Shown here in pieces: positions 9,312 to 19,431 of a DNA stretch of 20,000 nucleotides. The DNA is taken from the sequence record SRR2962707_896, one strand, 5' to 3'. Position 1 is the first letter of the stretch, and each line of letters starts with the position of its first letter. The notes beneath the pieces were generated by a model. It saw only the letters and a list, made by a program, of their open reading frames with translations. It made no database searches and was not told the origin of the DNA. The translations under genes and the position numbers were made by a program.

Positions 9312-10139
9312 TCAATAATATTCCATGACTCTTTTCTGAACGTAGATCAGAGCACCATTGTCGTACTTTTCCCTGTTCGTCCAATTCCCGAACTCGTCGT
9401 AGTCATACTCATAGACAACACGCTGCGTTCCGGCGTCGCCGTCTACCCAGCTTCTGGATGCCACGTCGCCATACTGGGTGTACTCGATCGTGTAAGGGAT
9501 ATTTCCCCAATCCTCCGATATGCTTTTGGATTCAATCAGGCGGCCGGAATCATCGTACTTGAAATCCATCACGACCTTTACCGATCCATCCTGGCGCAGT
9601 TCGGTTTCTTTCATGACATTGTTTTTATTGTCATATTCAAACAGCCTTTTCGACAAAACAATGGAGTCGGGTGATTTGTGGATCTCGGAAACCCTATTTC
9701 CCTTTGAGTCGTACTCCCGGAAATGAATGGCGGAGAGGCGGTCAACGCCAAAATAACTCCTGACTTCCACGGTACGCCCGGCTTCATCAAGTTCGTGGAC
9801 AAGCCTTTTCTTCACTTCTCCATTTGCCGCTGCGTAAACAATTTCCAGCAGGCGCCCATGGTCGTCTCTCTTGAACGTTCTGGTCTCGAAGAGCGTACCT
9901 TTCAGCCAGTATTCGCGCCTCGTGATATTCCCACTGTCATCGTAATGAGAAACTGTTTTACCCCTTTCCTTGAGAGCAGGGTCGGGCTCCACCGTATCGC
10001 GTTGTTCAATATTGTATTCTGTTTCCGTTACGGTCTTGAGAGTGGGCGCCTCATCAGCCGTGTCCACGCAGGAAGTTAAGGAGAGAACCAGGGCTGCCCA
10101 GAGGGAAGCAATCCTGGCTCTATGTTTGAAAAAAGACAT
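9312..10139 (-). CDS. YD/RHS-like repeat lipoprotein
   Basis: Signal MSFFKHRARIASLWAALVLSLTS-C. About 8 YDxxGN/R repeats at ~24-aa spacing; ends KRVMEYY. Visibly more AT-rich than its neighbours. Confidence 0.8.
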   Translation of the reverse strand: MSFFKHRARIASLWAALVLSLTSCVDTADEAPTLKTVTETEYNIEQRDTVEPDPALKERGKTVSHYDDSGNITRREYWLKGTLFETRTFKRDDHGRLLEIVYAAANGEVKKRLVHELDEAGRTVEVRSYFGVDRLSAIHFREYDSKGNRVSEIHKSPDSIVLSKRLFEYDNKNNVMKETELRQDGSVKVVMDFKYDDSGRLIESKSISEDWGNIPYTIEYTQYGDVASRSWVDGDAGTQRVVYEYDYDEFGNWTNREKYDNGALIYVQKRVMEYY

Positions 10140-10239
10140 ACAGGTTCTCTCTGTTTCCATGGCCCCAGGCAAAAGCCAAGATATCCGCCCTGGTACCCGG
10201 CACCTCCAGTGCGACAGCCCCTCGCCAACCGCTGCATGA

Positions 10240-10280
10240 ACCCCACCCACGAGTTTCAGACCTACTTGCGGGTGGGGGGT
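10240..10280 (-). terminator. Imperfect GC-rich hairpin just after the VOC gene stop
   Basis: ACCCCACCCACGAGT ... ACTTGCGGGTGGGG, about 7 nt downstream of the stop at 10287. The U-tract is weak. Confidence 0.4.
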
Positions 10281-10286
10281 GGAGAT

Positions 10287-10679
10287 TTACTTAACCCGAT
10301 GAATCGCGCAGAGCTTGTTGCCGTCAGGATCACGCACATAGGCCAGATGCATGGCGCCCATGCTGCCTTCGCGCAGCCCCGGCGGATCCTCGATGGGCTT
10401 GCCGCCCTGAGCCACCGCCACGTCATAGAATTCCTTTACCTGCTCGGGCGAATCGCACTTGAAACCGATGGTGCCGCCGTTGGCGCAGGTCGCGTCTTCG
10501 TCGTTGATCGGCTCACTGATAGCGAAGGTGCTGCCATCGTGGATATAGAACAGCCGGACGTGGCCGGAAGGCGCCACGTTGCGAAACGGCTCGCGCGCGC
10601 CGAGTACACCGAGCACCGCGTCATAGAATCTCTTGGAACGCTCGATGTCATTGGAACCGATCATGATGTGGTTGAACAT
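10287..10679 (-). CDS. VOC family (glyoxalase/bleomycin resistance-like) protein
   Basis: MFNHIMIGSNDIERSKRFYDAVLG..NGGTIGF..AQGG..EDPPGLR..LAYVRDPDGNKLCA. AGGAG RBS. Confidence 0.93.
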   Translation of the reverse strand: MFNHIMIGSNDIERSKRFYDAVLGVLGAREPFRNVAPSGHVRLFYIHDGSTFAISEPINDEDATCANGGTIGFKCDSPEQVKEFYDVAVAQGGKPIEDPPGLREGSMGAMHLAYVRDPDGNKLCAIHRVK

Positions 10680-11014: not shown

Positions 11015-11545
11015 TCACGTGAGGTCATGGAGCAGATGAATATCGTCCGGCTCCCGCCGATACAACGTTTCATCCAGCTGCTCGCATAACCGGCAGCCCA
11101 GTCTCATGTAGAAATCCACGGTGTTACGCGACGGCGTCGCCGAGACGTAGAGCGCGCCGGCCCCCACCTGCCGGGCCCGGGCGACAGCGAGACGGAAGAG
11201 ATGGGCGCCGAGGCCACGGCGGCGGTAAGCGTGACTGAGGTGGAGAAACGTCAGTTGCAGCCATTCGCCCGCCGGGCCAAAGCGGCGCGAATCGACAACC
11301 ACCGCGCCGATCAGGCGGCCCTGGTCGAACAGACCGAGGAACCAACCGCCACGGTCAAAGCAGTCAAGCAGGATGGGTGTGTAGTGCTCGGCCTCGCCGT
11401 CCGGCCAGCCGCTCATATGGTAAAACTCGGGACGGAGCACCAGCTTGCCGTTCTTGAGGGAATAGATCTCTTTGATCACTTCGCTGCGGTCGATCCCCCA
11501 GACCAGGGCGACCTCGTCTCGGCGCAACAGGCGCTCGTCGATCAT
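11015..11545 (-). CDS. GNAT-family N-acetyltransferase
   Basis: Motif A LHLSHAYRRRGLG..LF, then LYVSATPSRNTVDFYMRLG. AAGGA RBS. Confidence 0.9.
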   Translation of the reverse strand: MIDERLLRRDEVALVWGIDRSEVIKEIYSLKNGKLVLRPEFYHMSGWPDGEAEHYTPILLDCFDRGGWFLGLFDQGRLIGAVVVDSRRFGPAGEWLQLTFLHLSHAYRRRGLGAHLFRLAVARARQVGAGALYVSATPSRNTVDFYMRLGCRLCEQLDETLYRREPDDIHLLHDLT

Positions 11546-11919
11546 CGTGGTTTCCTTGCGTTCAGGTCGCGCACAGGGGCGGAACAGCCTACCTGCGCCT
11601 CGTGATATCTTAATGCCAAAGGAGACCGATCAGCCGGATTAGCCCTCTTCCAGTACGGACAGCAAGAACCCTCGCGAATCGACGCCCGCGCACCCACCGG
11701 CAATATGCCGGAGCCCTTCGGAAAACAGAGTCATTGGCCATTCCTTTTCGCCGTTGAAGGCCCCAACTCCACCCCGGATCGTCGACGCCACCACCGACGC
11801 GCCCGGTCCAGCGTGAGACACAGCTCTCATTCAAAGCGCATCCGGAGGTCGTGGAGGGTTGCGTTATGGCATTCACGCCACAAGATTCAGTGCTCGCACC
11901 GGCCAAGAGTTTCTTTTTC

Positions 11920-13551
11920 ATGTCCGACCACCCGATCCTGAACATCACCGACGTCGCCACCCCCGATGCCTACCCCGCCATCACCGCCGCCACCCTGAGT
12001 GGCGAATGGCCGGCGCTCACCGAGCGCCTGGAACGCACCGCCGCGGACTACCGCCGCGCGCCGTCCCTGCACACGTTGGTGCAACTGGAAGGCACGCTGC
12101 ACGCCATCCTCCGCGCCCCGCGCGACACCCTCGGCACCTGGGCCGACGCCGAGCCCGGCAACCCCTGGCCCTGGCTGGCGCAAGGCATGGCGGACACCTA
12201 CGCCGGGCTCGATGCGCGCGGCACGGAGACCGCCGACCAGCTCACCGAGGCCGAATGGGAGCAAGTGGCGGAGTACCTGACCCAAGCCCAGGCCCCGCTG
12301 ACCCGCGCCTTGGAACTGGGTGTGCAACCCGGGCCGGCACTGGCCGCCATCGGCCAGGCCGCCACGGTCATGGGCGTGCCCGAAGAGGACCACCAACAAC
12401 TGCTGGCGCAACTGGCGGAGGCCGACCCGAACTGGTTGCCCGCCTGGTCCAGCGCCCTGGCCCGCAGCGAAGCCCGCTGGGGTGGCAGCCTGGCGCACAT
12501 GGGCGAAGTGGTGGCTCTGGCCGAGCGCGCCATGACCGCCCCCGAGCTGCACCAGCTCCTCACCGCCGAGCGCTGGTGGTGGCGCGCCAACCGCGCCGCC
12601 ACCATTGACGGCGACCTGGTCACCGCCCGCGGGCACTTGCGCGCCGGCCTGGAAGACTGCCCGCCTGGGCGCATGCGCGCCGCCCTGCTGGTGTTGGAAG
12701 CACAAATCCTGGCCTCCCTGGACGCCCCCGCCCTGGAAATCGCCGAAGGCTGGCAGGCCGCCGTGGACGCCGCTCCGGACGACTCCACACATCAGTTCGA
12801 CCTCGGCCTGGCCTGGGTCAACGCCGGCGACATCGAGCGGGCCACCGCCGTGCTGAGCCGCCTGGCGGAACGGCCCGGCCCGGAGGGCCTGGAAGCGGCC
12901 AACTGGCTGGGGCGGTGCCTGGCCCGAGGCCGGCGTGGCTTTCCACAAGACCGCGCGGCGGCGGAGCGCTGGTTCCGCTTTGCCGCCGAAAAGGGTCCGG
13001 ACGGCAAACTCAACCTGGCCGAACTCCAACTGGAAGACGACCCGCACTCCGAGCAGGCCCTGGCCCTGTGCCGCGCCGCCATCGCCGAAGGCAACGGCTT
13101 TGGCGCCCTGCCCCTGGCCCGGGCCCTCCTGACCCAAGGCGAGCAGGCCGAAGCCAAGGCCCTGCTCAGCGACGCCCCTGTCGAGTTTACCGCCTGCAAA
13201 TACGCCCTGGCCCGCGGCCTGGACGAAGGCTGGTTCGGCACGCCCAACCCACGCGCCGCCCTCGACGTCAGCAGCACCGTGCTGCCCCAGGTGTTCGACC
13301 CGTACCTCTCCGTGCTGCACATGACCCTGCTCAGCGCCCAAGGCAATTGGGACGCCGCCCGGCAACATGGCCGCTGGCTGCTGGAAGAAACCGCCGAAGG
13401 TCGGCTCGACCTGCCCGACCCACTGTTCCACGAAGTCGAACGGCTGCTGGGCGCAATCCCCAAACCCGGCCTGGGCGGGTTCCTGAAACGGACCTTCAGT
13501 AATGAACGGTTGCGGCTGGAAGTGGAATCGCCGGATTTGTGGAACGTTTAA
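11920..13551 (+). CDS. DUF4034-like domain plus TPR/Sel1-repeat protein
   Basis: [19 protein letters not shown]...W and RWGGS..M resemble DUF4034. [34 protein letters not shown] is a Sel1-like repeat. Start is uncertain (11851, 11866 or 11920). Confidence 0.75.
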
Positions 13552-13709
13552 CCAGACTCTCCCGCAAAATCGCCCCAATCGCCCTCACCCCGGTGAGCGT
13601 CATCGCCACCTTCATCTCGCTGGCGATCAGGTCCGGCACATGGGCCACGCCCTGCTCGCCGGCGGCGGCCAGGGCGTAGACGAAGGGGCGGCCGAGCAGC
13701 ACGCCGCCG
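13551..13709 (-). pseudogene. lldD: Orphan copy of the lldD 3' end (last ~53 codons)
   Basis: Ungapped 159-bp match to 18305-18463 with 20 mismatches by hand count (~87%). Translates to [52 protein letters not shown]. Confidence 0.95.
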
Positions 13710-13767
13710 CTGTTCGATAACCCTTTCAATCATGTCCGCTCTCCTGATCGCCCCAGGTGGGCGCGGC

Positions 13768-14397
13768 TTATTCAGCGGCCTTCTCGACGTTGAAGCCGTC
13801 GAAGTTATCGAAGACGCCCATAAAGCCCGGCACCGTCGCCTCGCGTGCCCAGTCGCGCTGGAGTTCGCAGTACATCTGCACGCGACTGATGAGTTTCACA
13901 CCGGCCTGCTCCATTCGCCGCAGCGCGGCCTCGTGGGCGGCCAGCGAAGTACCGCCCACCGCATCGACGGGCACGTAAACCTCATAGCCTTCCTGGATGG
14001 CGTCCAGTGCCGGAAAGGTCAGGCACGCCTCGGTCCAGAGCGCGGTCATGATCAGCTTCTTGCGCCCGATCGATTTGACCGCCTCCTTGAACCCGGTGTC
14101 CTCCCAACTGTTGATGGAGGTGCGATCGTAGGGCGGCAGATGGCCGAGCACGTCTTGCAGTTCCTGGATCGGCGGTTTGTTGCGGCCGGTCGCGACGTTG
14201 ACGGTGGAGTGGACGATCGGCAGGTCGTAGTTGACCGCCGCCTTGGCGACGCTGGTGATGTTGAAGACCAATTCGTCGCGGGGCATGGAGCGGATCGACG
14301 AAACCTGAATCGGTTGGTAGTCGATGATGATCAACGCTGAATTTTCCGGGGTCAGCAGTTGGTCGGTGTGGGGATTACGGATCGTTTCACTTGCCAT
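13768..14397 (-). CDS. Isochorismatase-family cysteine hydrolase, YcaC-like
   Basis: LLTPENSALIIIDYQP, DRTSINSWED, ALWTEACL.FPAL, VDAVGG.S..AH..A..RM.QAG, ELQRDWAR. Confidence 0.92.
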   Translation of the reverse strand: MASETIRNPHTDQLLTPENSALIIIDYQPIQVSSIRSMPRDELVFNITSVAKAAVNYDLPIVHSTVNVATGRNKPPIQELQDVLGHLPPYDRTSINSWEDTGFKEAVKSIGRKKLIMTALWTEACLTFPALDAIQEGYEVYVPVDAVGGTSLAAHEAALRRMEQAGVKLISRVQMYCELQRDWAREATVPGFMGVFDNFDGFNVEKAAE

Positions 14398-14411
14398 GGG
14401 TAAAGTTCTCT

Positions 14412-15245
14412 CTATTCAGCGCGTATAAACTCGAGCAGATCAGCGTTGACCTGGTCAGGATGGGTGGCGAACAGGCCGTGGGACAGATAGGGATAGGTCT
14501 TGAGCGTGCCGTTGGGCAACAACTTGATCGCCTTGTGAGCGGAGGCCGCGATCGGCACCACCTGGTCGTCTTCGCCATGCAGGATCAACACCGGGATCTC
14601 GATGGCTTGAAGATCATCGGTGAAGTCGGTTTCCGAGAACGCCTGGATGGAGTCGTACTGGGCCTTGGCGCCGCCCGCCATGCCCTGGCGCCACCAGTTG
14701 TCGATCAGCCCCTGGCTGATTTCGGCGCCTTCGCGATTGAATCCATAGAACGGCCCCGTGGGTATGTCGCGGAAGAACTGGGCACGGTTGGATACCAGCG
14801 CGCTGCGGAAGCCGTCGAACACGGCCATGGGTGTGCCTTCCGGGTTAGCAGCCGACTGCAGCATGATCGGCGTCACCGAACCGATCAGCACCGCCTTGGC
14901 CACACGGCCCGGCTCTACCCGGGCAACATAACGGGCGACCACACCTCCGCCGGTGGAGTGCCCGACATGGATGGCGTTGCGAAGATCGAGCGCCTTCACC
15001 AGATCCGTGGTGTCGGCGGCATAAGTGTCCATGTCGTTGCCGGTGTCGGTCTGGTCGGAACGGCCGTGCCCACGCCGGTCGAACGCGACGACGCGGTAAC
15101 CCTGCGAGAGAAAGAACAGCATCTGGTTGTCCCAGTCGTCCGATGACAGCGGCCAACCGTGATGGAAAACGATAGGCTGAGCGTCCTTCGGTCCCCAGTC
15201 CTTGTAGAAGATGTGGGTACCGTCCTGAGCGGTGATGGTCGCCAT
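14412..15245 (-). CDS. cpo: Non-heme chloroperoxidase / perhydrolase (alpha/beta hydrolase)
   Basis: DGTHIFYKDWG, FHHGWPLSSDDW, DRRGHGRS, GHSTGGG, SETDFTDDL, HGEDDQVVP, SHG; Ser-Asp-His triad present. Confidence 0.93.
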   Translation of the reverse strand: MATITAQDGTHIFYKDWGPKDAQPIVFHHGWPLSSDDWDNQMLFFLSQGYRVVAFDRRGHGRSDQTDTGNDMDTYAADTTDLVKALDLRNAIHVGHSTGGGVVARYVARVEPGRVAKAVLIGSVTPIMLQSAANPEGTPMAVFDGFRSALVSNRAQFFRDIPTGPFYGFNREGAEISQGLIDNWWRQGMAGGAKAQYDSIQAFSETDFTDDLQAIEIPVLILHGEDDQVVPIAASAHKAIKLLPNGTLKTYPYLSHGLFATHPDQVNADLLEFIRAE

Positions 15246-15275
15246 GGAGACGTCCTCTTGGTCGCGTGGTTCGGA

Positions 15276-15929
15276 TCAGCCGGCGTCGCTCGGCACCGGC
15301 GTGTTGAGCAGTTGCTGCTCCCAAAGATAGGCGATGCCGCTGCCGCTGAAATGCTGAATGAGGATCTCGGTCAGCTCCTCGACATGCCCGGTACGCGCCC
15401 AATCGCGTTGCCATTCGCCAGCGAGCGCCATCACGGTCATCACGTTCGCGCCAGCCGCGATCATTCGCTGGATGGCCACTTCGTGAGACTCCTTCGAAAT
15501 CCCGCCCGACGCGTCGGTGACCACGGTCACGTCCCAGCCTTCGCCGGCGGCCTGGATGACAGGCATTGCGACGCAGATCTCGGTCCACAGGCCGGCGATG
15601 ATCAGCTGCTTGCGGCCGGTCTCCTTGACCAAGTTCACCACATTTTCGTCCTGCCAGGTGTTCACCCAGGTGCGATCGATGACATCCTGATCCGGAAATA
15701 CGTCGGTGATCTGCTTGAAGAGAAGCCCTCCGCGCGCCGCGATCACACTGGTGAGAATGGTCGGAACGTTGAAGGCTTTTGCCAGCTTGGCCAGCGCGGT
15801 GGTGCTGTTGACCACGGCTTGCGGGTCGTGACTGTTCAAGTTCGCGAGCTGGTAAGGCTGGTGGTCGATCAAAACCAGTACGGAATCTTCGGGACGAAGA
15901 AGCGAATCAAGGCCGTTGCGGAAGGTCAT
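15276..15929 (-). CDS. Isochorismatase-family cysteine hydrolase, YcaC-like (second paralog)
   Basis: LLRPEDSVLVLIDHQP, IDRTWVNTWQD, AGLWTEICVAMP, VTDASGG.S, EWQRDWAR. GAGG RBS. Confidence 0.92.
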   Translation of the reverse strand: MTFRNGLDSLLRPEDSVLVLIDHQPYQLANLNSHDPQAVVNSTTALAKLAKAFNVPTILTSVIAARGGLLFKQITDVFPDQDVIDRTWVNTWQDENVVNLVKETGRKQLIIAGLWTEICVAMPVIQAAGEGWDVTVVTDASGGISKESHEVAIQRMIAAGANVMTVMALAGEWQRDWARTGHVEELTEILIQHFSGSGIAYLWEQQLLNTPVPSDAG

Positions 15930-16081
15930 GAATACATCCTCTGCTGCCAGTATGAGTGAGATAGGTTTTCCGGGAGACAGGCGCCGGCTGCGGCGATGTC
16001 GAAGCCGATACTGGCATTGCCATTGATGACGCGGTAGCGTTCCATTCTGCTACGCTGTGTCGCGCAAAGAGGAACACCAAA

Positions 16082-16975
16082 GTGAACATCGAAGAGCTAC
16101 GGACCTTCGTGGAAGTCGCGGATGCCGGGGGCGTGTCGCCCGCCGCGCGCCGGCTCGGTGTCTCCAAGTCCATCGTCAGCCGGCGGCTGTTGCGACTTGA
16201 AGCGGAACTGGGTGTCCAGCTTCTGGCACGCACCACCCGTGGCGCCGCGCTCACCGAAGCCGGGATAACCTTCCGGGACTACGCGGCGCGGGTTTGCGCT
16301 GAGATCGACATGGCCAAGGAAACGCTCCTGCCCGCCGGCGACCTTCGCGGACGCTTGCGAGTCACCGTGCCACTCTCATTCGGCCCAACGCACTTCGCCC
16401 CGGTGCTCGCGGAAATGGCGCGGCGTCATCCGCAACTTCATATTCACACCAGCTACAGCGACCGCTTCGTGGACCTGATCGCGGAGGGATACGATTGCGC
16501 GATACGGGTGGGCTATCTTCAGGACTCGGACCTGATCGCAAGACGGGTCGGCCCGATCTACGGCAAGCTCGTCGCCAGCCCGGACTACATCAAAGCCCAC
16601 GGCGCGCCGGAAACGCCTGACGAGCTCCTCACCCATCAGGCCCTCATGCAGGGCACCGAGGCCTGGCAACTCATGGACGGCGACAAGATCATCACCGTGC
16701 GCCCGCAAGGCAACTTCAAGGCCGATAACGGCATCGCCCTGGTCGCCGCCGCAGTCGCCGGGATCGGGATCGGCTACCTGCCCGATTGCCTCACCCATGA
16801 ACACGTGGCCTCCGGCGCGTTGGTACCGATCATGACCAACCACCCGCCCCCGCCGGCCGGCGCCTATGTCATCCGGCCACCGGGACAGCACCCCGCCCGC
16901 AAGATCCGGGTGCTCACCGAGCTGTTGATCGAGAATTTTGAGCAGGATTCGCGGCGTTGGGGGCTTGGGGGTTGA
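16082..16975 (+). CDS. LysR-family transcriptional regulator (CrgA/YcaN-like)
   Basis: HTH LRTFVEVADAGGVSPAARRLGVSKSIVSRRLLRLEAELGVQLLARTTR; GRLRVTVPLSFG; DRFVDLIAEGYDCAIRVG. GTG start after GAGGA. Confidence 0.95.
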   Translation: MNIEELRTFVEVADAGGVSPAARRLGVSKSIVSRRLLRLEAELGVQLLARTTRGAALTEAGITFRDYAARVCAEIDMAKETLLPAGDLRGRLRVTVPLSFGPTHFAPVLAEMARRHPQLHIHTSYSDRFVDLIAEGYDCAIRVGYLQDSDLIARRVGPIYGKLVASPDYIKAHGAPETPDELLTHQALMQGTEAWQLMDGDKIITVRPQGNFKADNGIALVAAAVAGIGIGYLPDCLTHEHVASGALVPIMTNHPPPPAGAYVIRPPGQHPARKIRVLTELLIENFEQDSRRWGLGG

Positions 16976-17005
16976 AGGGAGGTGTCTGCAAGGCCAATGC
17001 CACCA

Positions 17006-17545
17006 TCAATCTGCCAGCCATCGGAGCGACGCTGTGGCGGATGAAACCAGGGCGAAAGGCAGATCGACGTCTTGGCGTGGCAACCTTACTCTGACTTCGC
17101 GATCAGCCACTCTTATATAAACCATGCCATCAGAGCCTCGCAAAGCCTGGACTTGCACTTCTTCCGAGACAGGCAATCCCGCGACAAGCACGACTTGCTC
17201 TTTGACTTCCCCATCTTTAACAACTTGGTACCCAGCATTGAGCTTCTCTGCTCCTGGCTCCGGCAAAGCGACAAATGCTTTTACCTGGTCTTTCCTGTCG
17301 ACAGTGGCAAAGCCCGCTGTCACCCAAGGCGCCCAGCTCGAGTCGGGATGAAGCCATTCAAATCGCAGCGCCACGACAAGCCGGGATTGCTCACTCTGCC
17401 CCAGGAACGGAATGGCAAAACCACTTTCCGGTGCTTCAACCACCATCGATTCCGCGGAATCCGTTAGTGACAAGTAGTCCACGTCATATCGCTTCTCGCA
17501 GGCAACAAGCGCTAAAGTAAGCAGTACCGGAAACAGTGCCTTCAT
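17006..17545 (-). CDS. Hypothetical lipoprotein
   Basis: Lipobox signal MKALFPVLLTLALVA-C, strong GGAGGG RBS, beta-rich 179-aa ORF, lower GC than flanks. Confidence 0.75.
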   Translation of the reverse strand: MKALFPVLLTLALVACEKRYDVDYLSLTDSAESMVVEAPESGFAIPFLGQSEQSRLVVALRFEWLHPDSSWAPWVTAGFATVDRKDQVKAFVALPEPGAEKLNAGYQVVKDGEVKEQVVLVAGLPVSEEVQVQALRGSDGMVYIRVADREVRVRLPRQDVDLPFALVSSATASLRWLAD

Positions 17546-17626
17546 AACCCTCCCCCCGACAATAGAATTTTATTACGCCAGCTAGACATATCGAAACGCA
17601 AACATGGTGTGGAAGGGTGTGTTGGT

Positions 17627-17700
17627 CAGCAGATGGGCAATACCGAACTCGTCAGCGGCGGCGAGGGCGTAAACAAAGGGGCGACCGAGCAGCACTCCGT
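17627..17700 (-). pseudogene. lldD: Second, shorter orphan copy of the lldD 3' region
   Basis: Ungapped 74-bp match to 18388-18461, 57/74 identical by hand count. Translates to [24 protein letters not shown] versus [24 protein letters not shown] in the intact gene. Confidence 0.85.
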
Positions 17701-17732
17701 GGTTGGAAGGGACGGAGCCGTCCGCACCAGAC

Positions 17733-17942
17733 CTACTGCCACTCGATTTTTATATCTTTGTGCGACTGAGCACAGTCCCGCAGGTAAAGATTGATCAGGC
17801 TCTGATACGGCAGGTCCGTCTTCTCCGCCAGATCCTTGAAGTACGCAATGGTGTCTTCATCCAGCCGGATCGTGACCTGCTTCTTGAGCTTCTTGGCGTA
17901 GGGGTTCTTGGTGGACTTGGAAAAATCGTAGTCGTCACGCAT
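17733..17942 (-). CDS. brnA: BrnA-family antitoxin (ribbon-helix-helix)
   Basis: MRDDYDFSKSTKNPYAKKLKKQVTIRLDEDTIAYFK..PYQSLINLYLRDC. Its start overlaps the brnT stop (ATGCGTGA). Confidence 0.9.
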   Translation of the reverse strand: MRDDYDFSKSTKNPYAKKLKKQVTIRLDEDTIAYFKDLAEKTDLPYQSLINLYLRDCAQSHKDIKIEWQ

Positions 17943-18228
17943 GGCGGTATTCCTCATAGGTGGTTCGCTCGCGCCTGTTCGCCTTACGGGCGGAGATGAT
18001 GCGGATGGTGTCCGCCTCTCGGACGCAATGGCAGACCACCAACAGGCGCGAATGGATGCTCGTGCCGAGAAGGATGAACCGGTCCTCCTCAGTAGAATGG
18101 TCCGGGTCTCCAATGACGCGGGCGAACTCGTCGGTAAACGCCGTTTTGGCTTCCTGAAACGAAACGCCGTGCTTGCGCTGGTTGGACGCTTCCTTTCGCG
18201 GGTCCCATTCAAATTCCAGATGGCTCAT
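17935..18228 (-). CDS. brnT: BrnT-family ribonuclease toxin
   Basis: FEWDPRK..SN.RKHGVSF.EA..D.DHS..EDRFILLG..LLVV.H..IRIISARKA..ER..Y. Confidence 0.93.
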   Translation of the reverse strand: MSHLEFEWDPRKEASNQRKHGVSFQEAKTAFTDEFARVIGDPDHSTEEDRFILLGTSIHSRLLVVCHCVREADTIRIISARKANRRERTTYEEYRHA

Positions 18229-18235
18229 GCATTAC

Positions 18236-18263
18236 AATGTAGTTATTTTGTAGTTTTTGTCAA
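18236..18263 (-). promoter_or_regulatory. Sigma70 promoter of brnTA
   Basis: Minus-strand TTGACA (18263-18258), 16-nt spacer, TACATT (18241-18236). The brnT ATG follows after 7 nt. A TGTAGTT direct repeat and TACAA/TTGTA inverted repeat overlap it and may be a BrnA operator. Confidence 0.7.
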
Positions 18264-18294
18264 GCAGGCGTGCCAAACCCGCTCGCTACCGGCA

Positions 18295-19431
18295 TCACAC
18301 CCGCACCAAACTCTCCCTCGAAACCTCCCCAACCGCCTGCGCCCCGGTCAACGTCATCGCCACCCGCATCTCGCTGGCGATCAGGTCCAGCACATGGGCC
18401 ACGCCCTGCTCACCGGCGGCGGCGAGGGCGTAGACGAAGGCGCGGCCCAGCAGTACGCCGTCGGCGCCCAGGGCGAGCAGGCGCACCACGTCCAGGCCGG
18501 AGCGGACGCCGGAATCCGCCAGGATCGTCAGGTCGCCCTGGACGGCGTCGGCGATGGCCGGCAGGGCCCGGGCGGAGGAGAGCACGCCATCGAGCTGGCG
18601 CCCGCCGTGGTTGGAGACAACGATGCCGTCCGCGCCGAAGCGCCCCGCCTCGCGGGCGTCCTCCGGGTCGAGAATGCCCTTGAGCACCATCGCGCCCTGC
18701 CAATACTCACGAATCCATTCCAGATCCCGCCAACCGATGGACGGATCGAAGTTCTCGCCCAGCCAGCCAATGTAATCCTCCAGGTGGATGCGATGGCCCA
18801 GATAGGCCGACACATTACCCAGATCGTGCGGCCGCCCGCGCAGGCCCACGTCCCACGCCCAGCGCGGGTGCGTCACCGCCTGCAGCATCCGCCGCCAGGC
18901 CGCGAAGGGCCCGGACATCCCCGAATGCCGATCGCGATAGCGCGCCCCCGGCACCGGCATATCCACCGTGAACACCAGGGTCCGCACCCCCGCCGCCCAG
19001 GCCCGCTCCAGTGCGTTCTTCATGAAACCGCGGTCGCGCAGCACATACAGTTGAAACCACATCGGCCGCGTCATCGCCGGCTGCACCTCCTCGATAGGAC
19101 ACACCGACACCGACGACAACGTAAACGGCACGCCCCGCGACGCCGCCGCCCGCGCCGCCTGCACCTCGCCCCGCCGCGCGAACATCCCGGTAAGCCCCAC
19201 CGGCGCCAACGCCACCGGCAGGCTCACCGCCTCCCCGAACAACCGCGCCGACAGATCCACCTCCCCCACTTCCTTCAACACCCGCTGCCGCAACGCCAAA
19301 TCGCGCAGATCCGCCACATTGCGCGCCAGGGTGTGCTCGTCGTACGCGCCCCCGTCGATGTAGTGGAACAGGAACGGCGGCAGGCGGCGTTTGGCGGCGA
19401 GGCGGTAATCGTGGGTGGAGGAGATGATCAT
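18295..19431 (-). CDS. lldD: FMN-dependent L-lactate dehydrogenase
   Basis: [94 protein letters not shown]. Confidence 0.97.

Follow-up and report, generated by a model that had tools for sequence, protein, structure and literature searches.

How two partial copies of the 3′ end of a metabolic gene came to lie downstream of the intact gene, each behind a different set of unrelated genes, is the question raised by the 20,000-nt stretch of sequence record SRR2962707_896 that we analysed here (the window). The intact gene, lldD (18295..19431, minus strand), encodes an FMN-dependent L-lactate dehydrogenase of 378 amino acids (Pfam FMN_dh, 1.9e-126; NCBIfam LldD NF033901, 727.5 bits against a cut-off of 550). 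It shows 94-96% nucleotide identity with lldD of other species of the genus and is the conserved anchor of the array. In minus-strand order, lldD is followed by brnT, brnA, an lldD fragment, genes for a lipoprotein, a LysR-family regulator, an isochorismatase, an alpha/beta hydrolase, and a second isochorismatase, another lldD fragment, and a convergent gene for a 566-aa protein. The domain assignments of the ORFs agreed with the gene order given in a preliminary description of this DNA, which had also reported two direct, ungapped copies of the lldD tail at about 77% and 87% identity. Both copies were recovered by a repeat finder and by BLASTN. Repeat family D1 pairs 13551-13709 with 18305-18463 (159 nt, 87%), and D2 pairs 17627-17700 with 18388-18461 (77%) and with 13634-13707 (78%) over 74 nt; neither contains gaps, and all lldD tail copies in the window are direct repeats. 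In a BLASTN search with lldD plus 100 nt as the query, the distal copy aligned with lldD nt 969-1127 (E 4e-49) and the proximal one with nt 971-1044 (E 1e-11).

A misassembly, which had been named as a possible origin of this arrangement, was rejected because contigs from other public runs span the junctions. Among the contigs of four runs listed across the array, there was no tail-to-tail joint representing the excised or empty form, and contigs cannot show rare forms. In run X8, cover ends at 16987, and the X8 contig continues beyond this point with sequence unlike the window.

We compared the region downstream of lldD among 19 species representatives of Alloalcanivorax, 18 of which bear lldD; this comparison is at the species level, and arrival events are undated. 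Displaced lldD 3′ fragments, one to four in number, were found in nine of the 18 lldD-bearing representatives. This range of 0 to 4 supports the earlier proposal of recurrent capture at the 3′ end of lldD, where units of tail plus cargo are added. The cargo between the tails, for which a catalogue had been suggested, differs between species and includes BrnTA, HigBA, HipBA, Fic/PDC-S24, PDC-M21, and unknown low-GC genes, with a GC content of 43-49% against a background of ~64%. The low-GC ORFs of loci L001 and L002 had no match in Pfam or PADLOC. In relatives, defence genes (Dsr1, an OLD/AriA-like ATPase, AbiE, PDC-S24, and PDC-M21) occur on both sides of lldD. Fragment starts range from lldD nt 648 to 1053 (those listed are 648, 684, 739, 832, ~862-871, 969, and ~1000-1015), and anchor sequence is duplicated in every case, by 74 to ~490 nt. 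The lldD side of the arrays is constant, whereas the right flanks are of at least three types (a TPR-like gene, TetR-DUF1348, sigma-FecR, and others).

The unit next to lldD in the window carries brnT (17935..18228, minus strand; Pfam BrnT_toxin PF04365, 1.5e-29), the toxin gene of a type II toxin-antitoxin pair, and the antitoxin gene brnA (17733..17951, minus strand; Pfam BrnA_antitoxin PF14384, 2.9e-10 on an overlapping frame). With its BrnT and BrnA domains adjacent, this pair is a BrnTA type II toxin-antitoxin module. The BrnA protein shows 93-97% amino acid identity in L001, L002, L004, and L007. The spacer between the lldD stop codon and brnT (18229..18294, minus strand) is cargo-specific and travels with brnTA: lldD with 100 nt downstream aligned over its full length (1-1237, 95.7%) with locus L001, which bears brnTA, and the last codons and post-stop sequence of the window lldD are common only to brnTA-linked tails, live or orphan.

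Immediately behind brnA lies the proximal orphan (17627..17732, minus strand), which corresponds to ~nt 791-826 and then nt 971-1044 of lldD. The 32 nt from the brnA stop codon to 17700 resemble lldD at ~nt 791-826 (repeat D7). The orphan as a whole thus extends further and is more fragmented than had been described from the 74-nt copy: it is a patchwork that has lost ~148 nt internally and breaks off at nt 1044. It is 98% identical in L007. Its differences are mainly synonymous (9/14 or 10/17, p ~0.01). Among 73 lldD loci of other genera, no donor was closer than the Alloalcanivorax alleles, at 80-81%.

The second cargo block begins with a lipoprotein gene of unknown family (17006..17545, minus strand, 179 aa) that has a lipobox-like N-terminus with a signal peptide ending in LVAC; it had no match in Pfam, NCBIfam, or PADLOC, and its product is 97% identical in L007. 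The block continues with the LysR-family regulator gene (16082..16975, plus strand; Pfam HTH_1 and LysR_substrate) and with the Pfam-assigned genes for an isochorismatase-family hydrolase, an alpha/beta hydrolase, and a second isochorismatase-family hydrolase (13768..15929, minus strand). The two isochorismatase-family genes are YcaC-like yet fall under the NCBIfam cut-off. In G006, this three-gene hydrolase block is 95% identical and lies ~8 kb from lldD without the distal fragment.

A three-way alignment revealed the 5′ stump of a pirin gene, a start codon and ~11 codons (13700..13733, minus strand), at the end of the hydrolase block. In L097, a full-length pirin gene (Pfam Pirin and Pirin_C) follows the same hydrolase operon. 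In the window, the pirin gene breaks off after ~35 nt, where a 10-nt GC-rich microhomology marks its join to lldD nt 969. This is the sole junction with a recoverable donor context. The lldD sequence after it is the distal orphan (nt 969-1127; 13551..13709, minus strand), a former 3′ end that was displaced and is now a pseudogene; an ORF over it matches Pfam FMN_dh positions 298-348 of 350 (E 7.6e-13). The stop codon of the 566-aa gene (11851..13551, plus strand) abuts the end of this orphan. The latter gene encodes a repeat protein and constitutes the native right flank: its orthologues show 89-93% amino acid identity in L008 and L010 and 75% in L014, and nucleotide homology of the flank to relatives ends at 13542. 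It had been called a DUF4034 gene, but there was no DUF4034 match at E<=0.001, only weak Pfam matches to TPR/Sel1.

All tails, live or orphan, are homologous ends of the FMN dehydrogenase. They could have arisen by purely local events, that is, by microhomology-born tandem duplications in one chromosome followed by divergence, gene conversion, and deletions, with no transfer between genomes. Microhomology joins are typical of tandem duplication, and the orphans are direct repeats. However, what lies behind the distal orphan is the native flank rather than a second copy of the cargo, and this orphan is 93-94% identical to the intact tails of other species against 87% to the resident tail. As the preliminary description had held, the fragments are no copies of the resident tail, and the distal orphan comes from a different, genus-typical allele. 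The accompanying claim that the differences are mostly synonymous, as between alleles from different donors, applies to the proximal orphan, which diverged mainly at synonymous sites like a working foreign allele. For the distal orphan, the different allele was borne out, but its private changes, 2-3 synonymous and 7-8 non-synonymous when set against the closest intact alleles, look neutral, which speaks for local events. The motif GRPF, taken earlier as a private mark of the orphans, is also carried by the intact alleles of G017 and G013. Local duplication is further contradicted by the cargo, which is foreign by its GC content of 43-49%, by the PDC-M21 units that occupy the same site in two species and are just 79% identical, and by the tail termini, which track cargo and not species. 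We therefore consider purely local events improbable.

The link between tail and cargo extends across the genus. In their last codons and post-stop sequence, all tails cluster according to the downstream cargo, across species and irrespective of whether the tail is live or orphan. The resident tail is nearest to the other tails linked to brnTA, from which it has 7 and 9 differences (all others, 9-15; G002 also has 9). All live lldD alleles diverge from one another within a few nt of nt 1121-1135. A sliding-window comparison of whole lldD alleles gave no clear recombination breakpoint, the signal being confined to the final 150 nt and weak.

Such a pattern recalls integrase-borne islands in the 3′ ends of genes (tRNA, icd, guaA), where the gene remains intact because the insert brings a substitute 3′ end, and the old end is left behind as a direct repeat. 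Elements that rebuild a gene 3′ end in this way are well known, and here also the live lldD is intact with a cargo-specific terminus. Site-specific integration would involve a recombinase encoded elsewhere in the genome and an att site in the lldD tail, with later deletions blurring the repeat lengths. The common divergence point of the live alleles, the starts of the two window fragments only 2 nt apart (969 and 971), and the tight unit ends at stop codons are in keeping with it. The start points, however, are spread across 400 nt, and start 969 is explained by the pirin microhomology join and start 971 by the internal deletion, which occurred at a 4-nt repeat. Integrase-borne islands carry a recombinase and att repeats of fixed length. 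Of 87 ORFs scanned from the cargo and flanks of the window array and its relatives (14 + 32 + 15 + 4 + 20, and 2 further window ORFs within or adjoining the array), none matched a Pfam recombinase or transposase; for recombinases, this had been noted earlier in the units of the window. In five multi-tail genomes, matches to the tyrosine recombinase family PF00589 were on other contigs or more than 90 kb off; one of these genomes, G017, has just two, both Xer-like by score. An integron cassette array would have intI, attI, and attC sites bounding its cassettes; here, there was no integrase-family gene nearby, and the repeat finder showed neither hairpin-like inverted repeats at the unit ends nor conserved inverted repeats flanking the units. 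Given the variable start points and the lack of a recombinase within the arrays or close to them, a fixed att site is unlikely. The earlier comparison with integrase-type elements, which use a fixed attachment site, is not supported by starts that vary from nt 648 to ~1015 and a traced junction that is a microhomology join, and for the ORFs and genomes covered we regard site-specific integration as very improbable.

The junctions themselves recur between genomes. The hipBA-orphan junction is identical in G005, G008, and G017, and a Fic-orphan junction is common to G002 and G006; because the latter differs by ~8 nt and is heavily deleted, its identity is probable, not certain. The hipBA cargo and the Fic cargo are each found on a TetR-DUF1348 flank and on a sigma-FecR flank. 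Since junctions are reused on different flanks, later homologous exchange is indicated. Recombination is also seen within the orphans, the G017 orphan looking chimeric, with 2 vs 6 differences in its first part and 5 vs 1 in the next, by a weak test (Fisher p = 0.10).

These junctions bear on another route, homology-facilitated illegitimate recombination (HFIR) of linear incoming DNA, in which homologous recombination of one end in lldD is accompanied by a microhomology join of the other end within the resident lldD, so that each unit requires one event. The short microhomology expected at the non-homologous join is present at the pirin-lldD junction, the one junction with donor context, and lldD as a highly conserved anchor (94-96% within the genus) would suit the homologous end; moreover, this route has been proposed for analogous T6SS effector-immunity arrays (PMC5361080). 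On the other hand, according to an E. coli study (PMC3240628), true HFIR would be expected to remove target DNA adjoining the anchor, and the duplications observed in that test were single crossovers of circles. At lldD, the anchor-adjacent recipient DNA is duplicated rather than deleted in every event, and the identical junctions on different flanks require further homologous exchange anyway. We consider HFIR rather unlikely as the origin of the array.

We favour the view that the region behind lldD is probably an integrase-free hotspot in Alloalcanivorax, in which toxin-antitoxin modules, candidate phage-defence systems, and small accessory operons accumulate; the partial lldD copies would be former 3′ ends displaced outward by each new packet, with units made by illegitimate joins and inserted by homologous recombination. 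First, a microhomology-mediated illegitimate join would fuse the far end of a cargo block with a site inside lldD and create a unit of lldD tail, cargo, and junction, possibly as a circle or as the junction of a local duplication. Host homologous recombination could then place this unit into any resident lldD, either by a single crossover of a circle (Campbell type) or by a double crossover with lldD as the left arm and an orphan tail as the right arm. The live gene would take the incoming tail, and the old tail with its own downstream cargo would become an orphan. Orphans would then decay through substitutions and deletions, and displaced toxin genes would often be lost. Starts located exactly at the brnA stop codon, in three or four different contexts, would not be expected from random illegitimate joins and count against our explanation, as does the fact that a single junction could be traced to its donor context. 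The circular intermediate, the dependence on RecA, and the route of DNA entry are elements that we infer. ComEC, considered as a hint of natural transformation, was found in 19 of 19 genus genomes, but this search was uninformative because a control search also matched 12 of 14 well-known genomes.

The insertion step has a laboratory counterpart. When a plasmid bearing the end of lacZ was used in E. coli, 56 of 60 integrants had a duplication of 109-950 bp of the homologous end, attributed to a single crossover of the circle (Amarir-Bouhram et al. 2011, PMC3240628). As in that Campbell-type insertion, the gene end is directly duplicated on both sides of the insert at lldD, by 74 to ~490 nt. 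That system employed a laboratory plasmid, whereas the lldD arrays are known here from assembled sequence, and circles would be a possible source of them.

The array also resembles arrays formed by C-terminal displacement, to which work by Jackson et al. in 2009 reportedly also relates. In Rhs/CDI/T6SS loci, new modules arrive beside a conserved region, the old 3′ end and its partner gene are pushed out, the ordered orphans keep a conserved piece, no integrase is involved, and homologous and illegitimate recombination are proposed (Kirchberger et al. 2017, PMC5361080). Likewise, the lldD orphans are distal to the live gene, retain the conserved part, and have a partner gene beside each. However, displaced ends in those loci are different toxin domains that diversify the gene, whereas one and the same enzyme end is encoded by every lldD tail; the anchor here is metabolic, and the cargo consists of separate genes (toxin-antitoxin modules, defence candidates, and an accessory operon). 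The lldD array works like a C-terminal displacement array and is not a member of that class.

Neisseria minimal mobile elements are alternative cassettes without mobility genes at a fixed chromosomal position, where transformation and homologous recombination bring about their exchange. Bordered by two conserved genes, they replace one another, with no stacking and no displaced gene ends. Core defence hotspots, as described by Johnson et al. 2023 (PMC10250203), share with lldD the variable defence cargo beside conserved core genes, many sites having no mobile-element gene. That source terms the hotspots enigmatic and suggests homologous exchange through the flanks, from which no scars are expected. 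They have two conserved flanks, whereas here the lldD side alone is constant and each event leaves an orphan-tail scar. A narrow literature search yielded nothing that describes lldD as an insertion hotspot; by title and abstract, the papers retrieved deal with a Corynebacterium variabile genome and with Neisseria meningitidis pathogenesis.

The way in which hotspots of defence and toxin-antitoxin genes form without an integrase is an open question, and at lldD there are scars by which it can be approached. The orphan tails give the order of arrival, their start points show no fixed attachment site, and one junction displays an illegitimate join at base resolution. The mechanism is testable in a culturable marine hydrocarbon degrader. 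Partial copies of the end of a core gene downstream of that gene provide a rule for searching for other hotspots, and the low-GC unknown genes between the tails are candidates for new defence or toxin-antitoxin systems. As a more tentative reading, the lldD tail may serve as a portable homology arm: a cassette carrying a fragment of a housekeeping gene could be inserted by the RecA of any host into any downstream context and would leave a second arm for the next transfer. The array might then be regarded as an "integron without an integrase" of selfish toxin-antitoxin and defence cassettes, in which the orphan tails would be an ordered record of how the hotspot was built.

Intact lldD (18295–19431, minus strand), encoding a full FMN-dependent L-lactate dehydrogenase (NCBIfam NF033901; 727 bits against a cut-off of 550), is accompanied in the window by two displaced copies of its 3′ end. 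A repeat finder paired 13551–13709 (distal fragment) with 18305–18463 as an ungapped direct repeat of 159 nt with 87% identity, and 17627–17700 (proximal fragment) defined a separate 74-nt family, with 77–78% identity to both other copies. Alignment to the intact gene placed the distal and proximal fragments at lldD nt 969–1127 and 971–1044, respectively, and the ORF spanning the distal copy still matched the end of Pfam FMN_dh (E 7.6e-13). In minus-strand order, lldD is followed by the toxin–antitoxin pair BrnT and BrnA; between the two fragments lie a lipoprotein without known family, a LysR regulator, and then an isochorismatase, an alpha/beta hydrolase, and a second isochorismatase, which precede the distal copy. 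The repeats and gene order of the preliminary description were thereby reproduced by repeat finding, alignment to lldD, and Pfam/NCBIfam searches. The convergent 566-aa gene beyond the distal copy, described there as DUF4034, gave no DUF4034 match at E ≤ 0.001 and only weak TPR/Sel1 matches. No recombinase was found among the genes between and around the lldD copies. Elsewhere in the window, a minus-strand 312-aa ORF (9312–10250) showed a weak YD-repeat match (NCBIfam TIGR01643, E 1e-5).

A misassembly could also produce such an array, and contig breaks in public runs tend to fall at lldD tails. At least half of the sampled words from 13300–14100 were found in 18 runs (of 19 matching rows, 12 studies). 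In the independent run X8, a 58-kb contig spans 11800–16987 at ca. 98% identity and carries the distal fragment and the second cargo block; it diverges from the window at 16987, just past the LysR gene, and the proximal part of the array is therefore different in that organism. A contig of another run, X14, spans 15394–18396. With these contigs spanning it, the array is real and not an assembly artefact.

Named records with 96–97% identical LldD belong to Alloalcanivorax/Alcanivorax. We compared 19 species representatives of Alloalcanivorax (G001–G019, one per species), 18 of which had the lldD tail. One to four extra 3′ fragments were present near lldD in nine (G002–G008, G016, and G017), and none in seven whose flank was visible (G001, G009, G011, G013, G015, G018, and G019); in the remaining two (G010 and G014), lldD lies at a contig edge, where fragment presence is not assessable. 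The number of tails thus varies from 0 to 4 extra fragments among relatives, as the preliminary description required. Among 80 bacterial lldD loci fetched, partial copies within 10 kb occurred at three of the seven loci of this genus and at none of the 73 of other genera, which makes the phenomenon a feature of this genus rather than of lldD as such. Upstream of its intact lldD, G019 has displaced 5′ pieces (L014:10470–10871 and 9687–10430; lldD nt 1–279 and 623–740) and, in between, an HTH gene, which shows that displacement can affect the 5′ end as well. At the G008 locus, the proximal lldD copy (L004:13040–13951) is broken by internal deletions at ca. nt 647–746 and 890–1002, the next copy (L004:10212–10764) starts at nt 648, and no intact lldD was seen. 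An LldD 97% identical to that of the window is encoded on a 4967-nt contig (L017) assigned to a Verrucomicrobiota MAG, an assignment that is probably a binning error.

The distal fragment was 93–94% identical to intact tails of other species and 87% to the resident tail, which rules it out as a duplicate of the gene's current 3′ end. Its differences from the nearest intact alleles, 2–3 synonymous and 7–8 non-synonymous, correspond to a neutral ratio; dN/dS between intact lldD alleles was 0.06–0.28. On these comparisons, the distal fragment is a genus-typical allele that drifted after displacement. The proximal fragment differed by ca. 20% from all alleles, and 9 of 14 or 10 of 17 changes were synonymous (p about 0.01), indicating that it diverged mainly inside the working gene of an unsampled lineage; a search for a closer donor among 73 lldD loci of other genera found none. 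The earlier view of both fragments as alleles from different donors, with many synonymous or conservative changes, thus holds for the proximal one, while for the distal one the foreign allele stands and the excess of synonymous changes does not. Over the final 150 nt, the resident tail had the fewest differences, 7 and 9, from other brnTA-linked tails; G002 tied at 9, and the others had 10–15.

A start codon and ca. 11 codons immediately upstream of the distal fragment represent the 5′ end of a pirin gene. The same operon runs on into full pirin (Pfam Pirin and Pirin_C), past an extra ABM-domain gene, in L097, a locus of G007. In a three-way alignment, the window tracks pirin up to the 10-nt run CGACGGCGTG, corresponding to lldD nt 968–977, and then tracks lldD, which makes this an illegitimate join at microhomology rather than a site-specific one; this is the one junction with known donor context. 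The ABM-domain gene (L097:614–931), between the isochorismatase gene and pirin, is absent from the window, and G007 seems to have a second, diverged operon copy that fragments its assembly. The proximal fragment begins right after the brnA stop, and its apparent start at nt 971 results from the loss of internal sequence between two ACGG repeats. The exact brnA stop is the start of three or four unrelated sequences in different genomes (window 17733; L004:9940; L001:11715; L002:7716). Homology among Fic units and among PDC-M21 units likewise ends near the stop codon of the last gene (33 nt past it for Fic). Deletion pressure up to a limit set by selection may account for these tight ends.

Fragments start at lldD nt 648, 684, 739, 832, ca. 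862–871, 969, and ca. 1000–1015, indicating no fixed site. In agreement with the preliminary description, Pfam detected no recombinase or transposase among 87 cargo and flank ORFs of the window and relatives (14+32+15+4+20 in five scans, and two from the window close to the array in a sixth, whose other 18 ORFs duplicated the first scan or lay far off in the window and are not counted). In five multi-tail genomes, all PF00589 matches (2 to 6 each) were on other contigs or >90 kb from lldD; G017 had only two, both Xer-like by score.

The last codons of the tail and the post-stop sequence grouped by downstream neighbour (brnTA, higBA, hipA, Fic, PDC-M21, or TetR-DUF1348), independently of species and of live or orphan state; for example, the G005 orphan before higA and the G017 live gene before higBA share a terminus. 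Therefore, the arrays can be read as stacks, with the newest unit beside lldD and older tails and cargo further out. G005, G008, and G017 share one hipBA/orphan junction, which is followed downstream by a TetR-DUF1348 flank in G005 and G008 and by a sigma-FecR flank in G017. For Fic cargo, the junction (33 nt in common, followed by lldD at ca. nt 862–871) was found with TetR-DUF1348 in G002 and with sigma-FecR in G006. All four cargo–flank combinations thus exist, so that either exchange took place within the orphan tail or the same illegitimate joins formed on two occasions. The orphan of G017 seems to be a chimera, with two differences to the G005 orphan versus six to its own live gene in the 5′ part and five versus one in the 3′ part, although these counts are low (Fisher p = 0.10).

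We propose that junctions would be created by illegitimate joins, and that units would be placed and reshuffled by homologous recombination in lldD. Canonical homology-facilitated illegitimate recombination was proposed for analogous T6SS arrays (PMC5361080). In an E. coli test of that process, however, true events were expected to delete target DNA, and 56 of 60 integrants had a 109–950 bp duplication of the homologous end, produced when a circular molecule integrated by a single crossover (PMC3240628). The duplications of 74 to ca. 490 nt found here fit this Campbell-type outcome, and fit equally a double crossover with the orphan as right arm. In this scheme, we infer the circle, its dependence on RecA, and the route by which DNA enters.

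In the window, the second cargo block, from LysR to isochorismatase, is an accessory operon of ordinary type and recurs at 95% identity in G006, ca. 8 kb from lldD, without the distal fragment. Downstream of lldD, relatives carry HipA with an HTH partner, HigBA, BrnTA, a Fic protein (PDC-S24 by PADLOC, 473 bits), AbiEi/AbiEii, HTH-MazG-Schlafen-helicase, and, in G003 and G008, the three-gene candidate system PDC-M21. Several cargo blocks have 43–49% GC against a background of ca. 64%, and some of their ORFs matched nothing in Pfam or PADLOC. Such inter-tail ORFs at loci of relatives (L002:8463–9536, 357 aa; L001:10541–11170, 209 aa, and 11179–11556, 125 aa), together with an equally unmatched one in a block of ca. 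55% GC (L003:9513–10379, 288 aa), are candidates for unknown toxin–antitoxin or defence genes. An identical deletion removed brnT in G004 and G008, G016 has no brnT sequence next to its brnA, and G005 lacks higB (sites with antitoxins retained, L002:7957–7983, L004:10185–10212, and L001:10052–10142); displaced modules lose toxins while antitoxins stay. On the upstream side of lldD, relatives carry the defence-type genes Dsr1 (1749 bits), an OLD/AriA/GajA-like ATPase, and a HATPase protein (L014:13162–15990, L103:1999–3999, and L002:13490–15883), and lldD is located between two variable regions.
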